Shown: positions 57,584 through 60,607 of the stretch, in pieces
Numbering within the stretch: the first letter of the stretch is position 1
How the letters are laid out: each line of letters opens with the position of its first letter
Source of the DNA: an uncultured Clostridia bacterium
GTDB lineage: Bacteria; Bacillota; Clostridia; TANB77; CAG-508
NCBI GenBank assembly: GCA_944390345.1
Contig: CALXPP010000002.1
Location: 26,060-90,059 of the forward strand
Direction of reading: 5' to 3'
DNA: 64,000 nt
The notes under the pieces: generated by a model
Told to the model about the DNA's origin: nothing
What the model saw: the letters and a program-made list of their open reading frames with translations, nothing else
Database searches by the model: none
Made by a program: the position numbers and the translations under genes

Positions 57584-57625
57584 AAATAATTTGTTTTTAA
57601 ACAAATATTATATAATTAGAGAAGA

Positions 57626-57654
57626 TTGACTTTATGTAACCTTTTTGATATAAT
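57626..57654 (+). promoter_or_regulatory. Sigma-A-type promoter with TTATGTAA spacer motif (XRE island)
   Basis: TTGACT TTATGTAA CCTTTTTGA TATAAT, a 17-nt spacer. Confidence 0.65.
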
Positions 57655-57687
57655 ATTTAGAAATTAAAAGGTTAGGAGGAAAAGGTT

Positions 57688-58695
57688 ATGCCAAAGACTT
57701 TTGGAGAAACTATAAGAGAAGCTCGGAGAAATAAGAGATTAACAGCTGGAGAGTTTGCAAAAAAAATAGGGATTACTCAAAGTGCATTAAGTAAACTAGA
57801 GAACAACCAAGCTAAAAAAGTAGATCCAGAACTTGTTAAAAGAATTTGCAAAGTATTGTATATAGATGCAAATCAGCTTTTCAATATAGAAGCTAATGTC
57901 ACATACAATTATGAGGGAAATATCATATATCCTTTCAAAAAGGCAGAAGAATTGAAGGAAGCTCTAAAAATTTCAAGAACAGCACTTGAAAAATTAGCTT
58001 TAAAGAAAGAAAAAATTTTTGAGCTAATAGATGTGATAGATTCATTTTTCGTGGGAGAAGAACATAATGGAAGAATAAGAATATTGTGCGAAAGAGGCAT
58101 AATAACAGCAGGAGGATGTTTAGAGGAAGATGAAATGTTATATTCGTTAACTTTAATGAGCTTTTGGGGATACTTGTATTATGAATACAGAAAAATTAGC
58201 TTTGAAAAAGAAATATCTGATTTAGTTGATATATCGATTTTGTACATTGGTCGCATCTTACGAGAGCAGGCTATCTATGGTATAAGACCAAATATAGAGT
58301 TTCGAGCAGGAAAATTTTGTAAAGAATTTAAAAATTTTATTAAAACAGCTTTAGGCGCACTAGGACATAAATATGACCCAATAGGACATTTAACAAATTT
58401 TTATGATCCAGAAGAGGCAGAAGAACTGAAGAATATAAGAGCCATATATGAAACAATAAGCTTTGATGGTGACACTATTAAATATTTTGATTATATTGCA
58501 CAAGTTCATAAATGTGTAAATGAAAAAAATAGTGTTGAAATACAGTATATGATTATGAATTTGTATACAAGAGCTTATGCTGAATCTGTAATGTGGCTCA
58601 AAAAAGAAGATCCAACTGGTCAGTGGTGTCCGGCAACTCCTTGGCAACTCTTAATTGAGCTTAAGCTGATGATTCAAAATTACTTTTTTTATTAA
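57688..58695 (+). CDS. XRE-family helix-turn-helix regulator with a ~270-aa uncharacterised C-terminal domain
   Basis: The N-terminus ETIREARRNKRLTAGEFAKKIGITQSALSKLENNQ is an HTH_3-type motif. AGGAGGA lies 8 nt before the ATG. GC content rises visibly towards the 3' half. Confidence 0.75.
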   Translation: MPKTFGETIREARRNKRLTAGEFAKKIGITQSALSKLENNQAKKVDPELVKRICKVLYIDANQLFNIEANVTYNYEGNIIYPFKKAEELKEALKISRTALEKLALKKEKIFELIDVIDSFFVGEEHNGRIRILCERGIITAGGCLEEDEMLYSLTLMSFWGYLYYEYRKISFEKEISDLVDISILYIGRILREQAIYGIRPNIEFRAGKFCKEFKNFIKTALGALGHKYDPIGHLTNFYDPEEAEELKNIRAIYETISFDGDTIKYFDYIAQVHKCVNEKNSVEIQYMIMNLYTRAYAESVMWLKKEDPTGQWCPATPWQLLIELKLMIQNYFFY

Positions 58696-58701
58696 ACATG
58701 A

Positions 58702-58726
58702 AAAGGAAGCTTTTACAGCTTCCTTT
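58702..58726. terminator. Hairpin between convergent XRE gene and asnB (better T-run on minus strand)
   Basis: AAAGGAAGCT tttac AGCTTCCTTT. On the minus strand it is followed by TTTT. Confidence 0.65.
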
Positions 58727-58759
58727 CGTGTTTGGATTAAATTTATATTTTTAAACTAA

Positions 58760-60607
58760 TTAAAGCTCTATTTTAGGATGATATCTCTCAAGCCACATAT
58801 TTACTTGTATTAGATATGCCATAAGCTGAGGACCAGTCATAAGCTGACCAAACCAAGGTCTTGTAAAAGCTTTGCCATCTGTTTCTAAAATTTCATTTAT
58901 ATAAGAAGAATTTAATAGAGAATGTATAGGACTAGAAGCATCTTTCATAATTTGTGTTAATTTTTCTTTTACTATTTTTAAATAAGATGGATTATGTGTT
59001 TTTGGATATGGACTCTTTTTTCTATAAATAATTTCTTCTGGTAAAAGTCCTTCCATAGCATATCTTAAAAGACCTTTTTCTCTTCCTTTATATGCTTTCA
59101 TTTCCCAAGGAATATTCCATGCATATTCTACAATTCTAATATCACAAAAAGGAACTCTTACTTCAAAGCCATTATACATACAAGTTCTATCAGTTCTATC
59201 TAGAAGAGTTTGCATAAACCAATTAGAGGTTAGATAAATTAATTTTCTAGAAAGTCTATTTTCATCAGTATCTTCTGGCAAAAATTCTACTTTATTTATA
59301 CTATCAGTATACCTCATATCAATATAATTTTTTAAATTAACTTCTTTTGAAATATCTGGATGTAAAAGTCTTTGTCGTTCATTTATAGCTAAAGACCATG
59401 GAAAGGTATTGCTTTCTAAGCTATCTTTTCGAAAATACCAAGGGTATCCACCAAAGATTTCATCTGAACATTCACCAGATAAAGCTACAGTTGCTTCTTT
59501 TTTTACATTTTTGAAAAATAAAAGATAAGAAGAATCTACATCAGCCATTCCCGGAAAATCTCTTGCAACCATAGCATCTTCTAATGTTTCAAATAATTCT
59601 GGACTATCTATAACAATTTTATGATGAATAGTATCAAATTCTTTTACCATTAAATCAATAAAGTAATTATCTGTATTAGGTTGAAAATCATTTTTTACAA
59701 AATATTTTTCTTGATCTTTATAATCTACAGAAAAGGTATGCAATTTAGTACCGAACTTTTCCTTGTAATATTTACTTGCAATTGCAGTGATAATACTTGA
59801 ATCTAAACCACCAGATAGCAAAGTACAAAGAGGTACATCAGAAACAAGCTGTTTTTGTACAGAATCTTCAATTAGAAAGCGTATTTTTTCACAGGTTTCT
59901 TCAAGACTATCGGTATGAGGTTTGGTTTGAATTTTCCAATATTCTTTTTTGGTAAAACCATCTTTATTAATTATAATAAAATGAGCAGGCTCTAATTCAA
60001 AAATATCTTTAAATGGGGTAAAACCAGGAGTATGACTAGGACCAATACCAAAAAGCTCAGATATACCAATTTTATCTAACTTGGCAGAAGCATTTGGATA
60101 CTCCAAAATAGCTTTTATTTCAGAAGCAAAAATAAAATTATTTTCAATAGTTGAATAATATAGAGGTTTTATACCAAACTGATCTCTTGCAATAAAGACT
60201 TCTTGGGTTTTATCATTGTAAATAGCAAATGCAAAAATGCCATTCAGATGATTACATATATCTTTTCCATATAATAAATAAGATTTAAGTAAAATTTCTG
60301 TATCAGAATGACCTTTAAAAGTGAATCTTTTTTTTAAAAGTTCTTCTTTAAGCTCTGCTGTATTATAAATTTGACCATTATAAACAATAGTATAAGTAAC
60401 TTCATTGTAAGTAAAACTCATAGGTTGTTTTCCATTTTCAATATCAATCACATTTAAACGCCTATGTCCTAAATTTACATGTTTTGAAAAGAAGAGGCCT
60501 TCTTCATCTGGACCGCGTTTTTTTAAGGTTTGAGTCATATTTCTAAGAATAGGATATTGGTTAGAAATATTTTCATTATAGTTTACAATTCCAACAATTC
60601 CACACAT
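58760..60607 (-). CDS. asnB: Asparagine synthase (glutamine-hydrolysing)
   Basis: It has the N-terminal MCGIVG nucleophile and the PP-loop LLSGGLDSS. The protein is 615 aa. Confidence 0.92.
   Translation of the reverse strand: MCGIVGIVNYNENISNQYPILRNMTQTLKKRGPDEEGLFFSKHVNLGHRRLNVIDIENGKQPMSFTYNEVTYTIVYNGQIYNTAELKEELLKKRFTFKGHSDTEILLKSYLLYGKDICNHLNGIFAFAIYNDKTQEVFIARDQFGIKPLYYSTIENNFIFASEIKAILEYPNASAKLDKIGISELFGIGPSHTPGFTPFKDIFELEPAHFIIINKDGFTKKEYWKIQTKPHTDSLEETCEKIRFLIEDSVQKQLVSDVPLCTLLSGGLDSSIITAIASKYYKEKFGTKLHTFSVDYKDQEKYFVKNDFQPNTDNYFIDLMVKEFDTIHHKIVIDSPELFETLEDAMVARDFPGMADVDSSYLLFFKNVKKEATVALSGECSDEIFGGYPWYFRKDSLESNTFPWSLAINERQRLLHPDISKEVNLKNYIDMRYTDSINKVEFLPEDTDENRLSRKLIYLTSNWFMQTLLDRTDRTCMYNGFEVRVPFCDIRIVEYAWNIPWEMKAYKGREKGLLRYAMEGLLPEEIIYRKKSPYPKTHNPSYLKIVKEKLTQIMKDASSPIHSLLNSSYINEILETDGKAFTRPWFGQLMTGPQLMAYLIQVNMWLERYHPKIEL

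Follow-up and report, generated by a model that had tools for sequence, protein, structure and literature searches.

Autoregulated regulators of the XRE family are commonplace, and a binding site laid over the −35 hexamer and the promoter spacer is the classic geometry of repression by occlusion, known from the lambda, 434 and P22 repressors and from the C-proteins. The spacers of sigma-A promoters are not normally constrained in sequence. Here we analyse an XRE-family gene and its promoter in a 64,000-nt stretch of DNA from an uncultured Clostridia bacterium (contig CALXPP010000002.1, positions 26,060–90,059, forward strand; hereafter the window). The gene lies between eno (56270–57583, +) and a convergent asnB (58760–60607, −), and the open reading frame (ORF) coordinates confirm this placement, which was already given in a preliminary description of the DNA. 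Its promoter carries a conserved 17-bp element, and with moderate confidence we propose, from comparison of sequences, that the gene product, a resident one-component regulator of the XRE family, acts through this element to repress the sigma-A promoter from which it is expressed.

The element emerges from the promoters of relatives, whose loci carry L-numbers below. Eight promoters were aligned: that of the window and those of L028, L029, L016, L022, L031, L015 and L027, whose proteins are 76, 52, 51, 49, 49, 48 and 38% identical to the window protein, respectively. All eight read TTGAC(A/T)-TTATGTAA-(C/T)CT-N6-TATAAT. Mean pairwise identity is 35% in the 30 nt upstream of the −35 hexamer, 96% in the hexamer itself, 100% in the octamer TTATGTAA and 92% in the 3 nt that follow it; it is 49% in the last 6 nt of the spacer, 100% in the −10 hexamer and 55% in the first 20 nt of the leader. 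The conserved element, TTGACA-TTATGTAA-yCT, is 17 bp long: it takes in the −35 hexamer and extends 11 nt into the spacer. Since sigma-A spacers are normally unconstrained, these 11 invariant spacer bases identify a cis-element. Its sequence in the orthologues, TTGACATTATGTAAyCT, includes an imperfect palindrome, TGACAT-T-ATGTAA, of 13 bp with five of six positions paired. The window promoter as a whole scores 11 of 12 in a consensus scan and has a TG extension. The literature, searched for TTATGTAA or TTACATAA in the role of a bacterial operator, offered nothing relevant.

A second group of relatives that bear a helix-turn-helix (HTH) domain (L017, L025, L026 and L033) differs in both protein and promoter. 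Helix 2/3 reads QSSVNK, HHEISD or PGCLSR in this group, as against [QP]SxL[SC]K in the first, and the promoter reads TTGACA-TAATrCAATAwTTTATG-TATAAT, with an inverted repeat ACATAA-N9-TTATGT. Such covariation of helix and motif is what autoregulation predicts, and it is suggestive only.

In the proposed mechanism, a dimer of the XRE protein would bind the 17-bp element over the −35 hexamer and spacer of its own promoter, and the bound dimer would block RNA polymerase, giving negative autoregulation. The C-terminal domain would supply dimerisation, signal input or both. The preliminary description had taken the octamer for an operator, most economically one for the XRE protein itself. A conserved cis-element is indeed present, and an operator for that protein is its most economical reading; the extension of the idea to a regulon looks weak, as discussed below.

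Several observations weigh against auto-repression. The window copy begins TTGACT rather than TTGACA, which weakens the left half-site, and ACAT-N-ATGT does not occur in the window. The helix–motif covariation amounts to only two or three independent changes, and it is ambiguous in that both promoter groups keep a TTATGT-like half-site. Homologues that lack the HTH keep a similar −35 context (TTGACATAAT) and have (T)TATGTAAC just after the −10 hexamer; this retention of the motif hints that some other factor could recognise it.

The protein begins with a genuine HTH_3 domain. The Pfam profile (PF01381) scores 41 bits over residues 9–57, where its gathering cut-off is 23 (E = 1.9e-10), and the chain divides into an N-terminal Cro/C1 HTH (residues 5–66), a disordered linker (68–82) and an α/β domain (84–335). 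The full-length AlphaFold2 (AF2) model has a predicted local distance difference test score (pLDDT) of 84. Its five HTH helices (residues 5–15, 20–26, 31–38, 47–57 and 61–64) form a lambda-repressor-like fold, and Foldseek aligns the N-terminal domain with the DNA-binding domains of SinR, 434 and P22 c2 (TMt 0.85–0.91; root-mean-square deviation (RMSD) 1.1–1.7 Å).

The C-terminal domain, modelled alone, reaches a pLDDT of 88 and a predicted template-modelling score (pTM) of 0.88. Its secondary structure runs H-H-E-E-E-H-H twice, with β-strands at residues 120–145 and 258–278; an internal duplication was considered and rejected, as hhalign of the two halves gave a non-significant E of 0.18. Foldseek found no relatives of the fold at E < 0.1, either in PDB (best E = 0.24, TM < 0.2) or among the predicted viral-protein structures of BFVD (best E = 0.14), PDB sequences searched with a profile of the domain gave no match, and Pfam, NCBIfam, PHROGs and PADLOC match the regulator only in its HTH. 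Across 1.84 billion cluster representatives, searched exhaustively with a profile, the domain occurs in 35 clusters. It is rare, narrowly distributed and undescribed, in agreement with the preliminary description, which had called it uncharacterised. Most proteins that contain it are stand-alone and ~250–260 aa long. A single sub-lineage has the domain fused to an HTH, encoded downstream of mutS at the same place in the chromosome, and this fusion is a derived state at that locus. In the 50–60 nt before the start codons of the HTH-less genes, L019–L024 share a strongly conserved leader, (t)TATGTAACTAcAATAACTCAACCACAATTAAGGGGAGG, which HTH-bearing genes lack.

The preliminary description had regarded the XRE gene as a foreign island. 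A search of 5.8 billion proteins returned homologues in only 46 clusters, among them full-length proteins down to 40% identity and a second set of ~260 aa that covers only the C-terminal 75% and lacks the HTH; a metagenome scan contributed only three further loci. Every named source is a metagenome-assembled genome (MAG) of uncultured Clostridia, Clostridiaceae or Eubacteriales, and each assembly has a single locus. In L001, L029, L031, L019 and others the gene comes after mutS or miaB-x-mutS, and L003, L005 and L019 have a convergent asnB a few genes further downstream. At the eno–asnB junction, where the preliminary description had suggested a comparison of synteny, homologues at 38–52% identity thus sit in a shared mutS/miaB–asnB neighbourhood of uncultured Clostridia MAGs, and the 76% orthologue in L028 keeps eno upstream as in the window. 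Base composition is mild, with a GC of 0.310 (z = 0.9) and a GC at third codon positions (GC3) of 0.217 (z = 1.4). Homologues from eight other lineages have a GC3 of 0.18–0.27 in loci of 26–29% GC; the slight elevation is common to the family and therefore an old property, not a mark of recent import. The GC-enriched 3′ end that had been pointed out is real, with 26 G+C in positions 58621–58680, and follows from amino-acid content: these codons specify QWCPATPWQ, the near-invariant and most conserved motif of the protein. Neither the window ORFs nor a repeat scan revealed mobility genes or meaningful flanking repeats at the locus. With its mild composition, its syntenic homologues and no such genes or repeats, a horizontally acquired island is rejected, and the XRE gene belongs to the resident chromosome of a clade of uncultured gut Clostridia, in which its position is syntenic.

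Two features of the relatives deserve mention beside it. A conserved protein of ~95–109 aa (…GRVFLKKFDK…LLIYPDGIIRDIF) is encoded directly downstream of the XRE-family gene in L001 (7212–7508), L019 (4981–5265), L021 (4971–5300) and L031 (7206–7514), as well as in L016, L018, L022 and L032; it accompanies HTH-bearing and HTH-less loci alike, is absent from the 64-kb window and may be a functional partner. At 5925–5985 of L005, a P0019-type XRE homologue (46–48% identity) has no TTATGTAA promoter; in its place, a 38-aa ORF and a perfect inverted repeat of 11 bp, GTGAACTTTAA-N12-TTAAAGTTCAC, come before the gene, and a similar inverted repeat lies upstream of the next gene.

Two small orphan genes of the window, here called cassettes 1 and 2 (Table 1), also have TTATGTAA in their promoters. 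Over 59 window ORFs GC3 has a mean of 0.138 and a standard deviation of 0.056, and the two cassettes are genuine, strongly atypical GC3 outliers. The preliminary description had grouped them with the XRE gene as three compositionally atypical genes, which holds strongly for the cassettes and only mildly for the XRE gene; its account of two small acidic proteins fits cassette 1 and barely fits cassette 2. A 124-aa ORF at 9107–9481 (−) has the highest GC3 of the remaining genes (0.224), slightly above that of the XRE gene. Each cassette protein has homologues in only three clusters. The cassette-1 orthologue (P0051, 82% amino-acid identity) is syntenic, between carB and an ABC transporter gene, and its 32-nt promoter core is identical while the coding sequence is 81% identical. 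Against L008 (5001–5246), cassette 1 is 82% identical in amino acids, compared with 97.5% for carB and 94.6% for the ABC ATPase, and so evolves faster than its neighbours; its substitutions by codon position (9/10/27) suggest weak purifying selection on the sequence. Cassette-2 orthologues (P0048 and P0049, 70–75% amino-acid identity) are syntenic with an O-methyltransferase gene, and the gene is frameshifted near its 3′ end in one lineage (L013). A homology between the two cassettes, or of either to the regulator in the manner of SinI and SinR, was considered and dropped, no similarity being found.

Genes of similar format occur in relatives. In L028 (250–600), a 66-aa putative membrane mini-gene with a GC3 of 0.39 lies between eno and the XRE gene. 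It is the third case of the cassette format in this lineage and comes with a promoter of its own, TTGCAA-ATCTATGCCTAAAGATG-TATAAT, and with a GC-rich terminator. L021 encodes a 178-aa orphan at 7206–7742 (−; GC3 0.27; promoter at ~7790–7825) for which Pfam, PHROGs and PADLOC gave no match, and a remnant of it, degraded to a 30-aa ORF, is left at 4871–5045 (−) of L020.

The distribution of the octamer bears on how far regulation by the XRE protein might reach. A regular-expression scan of both strands of the window for TTGNNN-N(0-2)-TTATGTAA-N(7-9)-TATAAT found exactly three sites, and the three promoter strings of the preliminary description are in the sequence exactly as quoted: TTGACT-TTATGTAA-CCTTTTTGA-TATAAT at 57626 (+), upstream of the 335-aa XRE gene; TTGCGA-T-TTATGTAA-ATTTGTGA-TATAAT at 38592 (−), upstream of cassette 2 (114 aa); and TTGCAA-TC-TTATGTAA-ATTGTAG-TATAAT at 18461 (−), upstream of cassette 1 (81 aa). 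Each is followed by a strong ribosome-binding site and an ORF. The preliminary description had also stated that other readable promoters lack the octamer, and 24 of the 27 TTGNNN-N16-18-TATAAT sites in the window do so. A fourth octamer with promoter-like spacing, TTATGTAA-GACTTTA-TATAAT at 38076–38097 (+), has no TTG −35 and is oriented so as to read antisense into cassette 2 through its terminator and 3′ end. At 28745–28760 (+), TTATGTAAATGTAATAC occupies a divergent intergenic region between a cytidylyltransferase-like gene (28257–28730, −) and a DUF5671 gene (28876–29199, +).

A mini-regulon in which the XRE protein binds TTATGTAA at its own and both cassette promoters, co-repressing three atypical genes, would account for the placement of the octamer 0–2 nt after the −35 hexamer in all three, for the intact right half-site T-ATGTAA that they share and for the GC3 ranks of the three genes (1st, 2nd and 4th among the 59 ORFs). 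The full conservation of the cassette-1 promoter core beside a diverging coding sequence also speaks for it. In spacer shuffles, three sites sharing an 8-mer at about the same offset arose in 1.4% of trials (P = 0.014). However, the cassette promoters align with each other as AATTTGC(A/G)AT(C/-)TTATGTAAATT(-/T)GT..TATAAT, far more closely than with the XRE promoter; as they are not independent and count as one family, the relevant figure is that for the XRE spacer sharing an 8-mer with at least one other site, which occurred in 6% of trials (P = 0.06). The pairing of octamer and GC3 was moreover seen after the genes had been picked, which inflates its significance. The cassettes share no more than the octamer at the centre of the 17 conserved bases, or ~10 of 17 positions overall with what are roughly chance matches outside it; the left half-site and the conserved CCT are missing from them, and a 17-mer scan of the window at up to three mismatches finds the XRE site only. 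In the cassette-2 orthologue the promoter reads TTGCGA-T-TCATTCAA-ATTTATGG-TATAAT, with three of eight octamer bases changed and the −35 and −10 hexamers intact. A promoter with the octamer in its spacer also drives the 178-aa orphan in genomes whose only family member is HTH-less. The cassette-1 promoter lies within an inverted repeat of its own, TACAATTTGCA-N6-TGTAAATTGTA, with 10 of 11 positions paired. The cassette promoters are akin to each other, with a symmetry unlike that of the XRE element. Their octamer most likely does not serve the XRE protein as a full operator, and the earlier proposal that the protein controls the two cassette genes is weak; we regard such a mini-regulon as unlikely. 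The string ATTTAGAA, proposed as common to the XRE and cassette-2 leaders, is in both. It occurs 23 times in the window against 19.3 expected, and its position relative to the −10 hexamer and ribosome-binding site differs between the two; it is therefore uninformative, and was rejected as a common leader element on its chance frequency.

Less probable still is that a different lineage-conserved regulator or promoter class uses TTATGTAA, with the XRE gene, cassettes and orphans as co-targets. It would explain why genomes with only an HTH-less family member carry TTGCAT-CAA-TTATGTAA-ATGTAA-TATAAT before the 178-aa orphan (L021) or its remnant (L020), a finding that means either that another factor recognises the motif or that the promoters share ancestry. 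HTH-less family genes have (T)TATGTAACTA just after the −10 hexamer, within their conserved leader, and the 15-mer TTATGTAAATGTAAT, the spacer of the orphan promoter in L021 and L020, recurs at window position 28745. Against such a factor, no candidate was identified, the flanks searched within 4 kb of the HTH-less genes hold no separate HTH homologue, TTATGTAA shows no enrichment over the window, where it occurs 9 times for an expectation of 10.2, and across ~60 kb of other group-A loci no genes but the XRE genes themselves have an octamer promoter. It is very unlikely that a single mobile element left all three genes behind as relics with their early promoters kept, or that the sharing is pure coincidence. 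Coincidence at P ~0.06 would cover the match between XRE and cassette promoters, and the cassettes, with their GC3, GC-rich terminators, few homologues and faster evolution (82% against 95–97% identity for neighbours), would fit mobile-element relics, as would the L028 mini-gene with its similar promoter (TTGCAA-ATCTATG...) between eno and the XRE gene. Against a common mobile origin, which the preliminary description had offered as an alternative, stand the age and synteny of the XRE gene in its clade and the synteny of both cassettes in related species; 20 kb separate the three loci from one another, no integrase or repeats connect them in the window, and phage, plasmid and viral (IMG/VR) collections and PHROGs hold no relatives of the three proteins beyond generic HTH matches. 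We consider it equally improbable that the XRE protein is, by way of an undescribed sensor fold, a dedicated repressor of dispersed GC3-rich orphan mini-genes, recognising TTATGTAA in their spacers. Such a reading would cover cassettes 1 and 2 together with the 66-aa and 178-aa genes of relatives, and the mini-genes would then be a new kind of small insertable expression cassette, silenced in very AT-rich gut Clostridia.

Auto-repression thus stands as our preferred reading, and the features of the locus and of the cassettes are collected in Table 1. The stop codon of the XRE gene is 64 nt from that of the convergent asnB, and the hairpin in this gap is probably a bidirectional terminator for both genes; miaB lies 3 kb beyond asnB. 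A gene for a 250-aa YezG-like immunity protein (PF04634, E = 9e-22) at 55317–56069 (+) is inserted between gpmI (53775–55304) and eno, within the run of glycolytic genes. An Rfam scan of the whole window found one tRNA and nothing else.

Table 1 Features of the XRE locus and of the two cassettes (window coordinates; CDS, coding sequence; pI, isoelectric point)
Feature	Position	Strand	Basis or detail
XRE-gene promoter, sigma-A-type	57626–57654	+	−35 TTGACT 57626–57631, 17-nt spacer, TG-extended −10 TATAAT 57649–57654
Conserved 17-nt block TTGACt-TTATGTAA-CCT, candidate auto-operator	57626–57642	+	Eight-promoter alignment
Ribosome-binding site AGGAGGA	57674–57680	+	7 nt upstream of XRE ATG, read from sequence
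XRE-family CDS, 335 aa	57688–58695	+	ORF, Pfam HTH_3, AF2 model
C-terminal domain, 252 aa, of unknown function	57937–58692	+	AF2 model, fold and sequence searches
Hairpin between convergent XRE gene and asnB	58701–58727	no strand	11-bp stem, scored on minus strand
Cassette-1 promoter TTGCAA-TC-TTATGTAA-ATTGTAG-TATAAT	18433–18461	−	Pattern scan
Cassette-1 CDS, 81 aa, pI 4.6, GC3 0.427, orphan	18153–18398	−	ORF and composition
Cassette-1 GC-rich terminator	18102–18127		Downstream of CDS
Cassette-2 promoter TTGCGA-T-TTATGTAA-ATTTGTGA-TATAAT	38564–38592	−	Pattern scan
Cassette-2 CDS, 114 aa, pI 6.1, GC3 0.357, orphan	38169–38513	−	ORF and composition
Cassette-2 GC-rich hairpin	~38130–38160		Downstream of CDS

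Among known regulators with an XRE-type HTH, several classes were compared and set aside. The RRNPP proteins (PlcR, ComR, Rgg and PrgX) share an N-terminal XRE-type HTH, a total length of ~300–340 aa and a Firmicutes host, and the preliminary description had raised an RRNPP- or TPR-like sensor fold. Such a fold was rejected: in the AF2 model the C-terminal domain has at least six β-strands and no TPR superhelix, Foldseek TM-scores to ComR and PlcR are 0.17–0.24 with RMSD values of 13–22 Å and a match in the HTH only, and no small peptide gene adjoins the XRE locus, whose neighbours are eno and asnB. A LexA/CI-type protein was rejected on finding no Peptidase_S24 match in Pfam or NCBIfam at E ≤ 1. 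SinR and SlrR are ~110–150 aa long, with a helical hook and a SinI or SlrA partner; the NCBIfam SlrR model scores 21 bits against a cut-off of 250, in the HTH only, the 250-aa α/β C-terminal domain does not fit, and neither cassette protein resembles the regulator. Antitoxin and defence XRE proteins (HigA, HipB, PezA, CapH and RmrA) give weak hidden Markov model matches, again confined to the HTH region; every score is far short of its family cut-off, and the C-terminal domain bears no relation to these proteins. Type II antitoxins (HigA, HipB, PezA and MqsA) were excluded at 19–32 bits against cut-offs of 48–290, and the window ORFs show no toxin, CapP-type protease or defence gene adjoining the XRE gene, only eno and asnB.

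The closest likeness is to 434, P22 c2, SinR and the C-proteins. The HTH superposes on those of SinR, 434 and P22 c2, a short imperfect palindrome overlaps the gene's own promoter, and dimer binding and auto-repression, as in autoregulated Cro/C1 repressors, would be shared by the XRE protein. Unlike Cro/C1 repressors, it has a 250-aa α/β C-terminal domain in place of an S24 peptidase, a SinR-type helical hook or a bare dimerisation helix, and its candidate operator is a single 13-bp palindrome within a 17-bp block, with no operator array seen. Like HTH-fused one-component regulators, it joins an XRE HTH to a domain that also occurs stand-alone at ~255 aa; unlike them, its partner domain belongs to no described family. 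If the auto-operator reading is true, phylogenetic footprinting alone has yielded a defined protein–operator pair for an uncultured gut Clostridia lineage and a tractable entry to a new sensor or oligomerisation domain. The GC3-rich mini-genes, an oddity of their own with near-consensus promoters and strong, GC-rich terminators, could bear separately on how orphan genes originate or are acquired in genomes of 27% GC. What sets the case apart is a C-terminal domain not described before, a footprint of the operator that is very clean and, apart from these, the orphan mini-genes; as it stands, the finding belongs to an ordinary class, that of autoregulated XRE regulators, with one unusual part.

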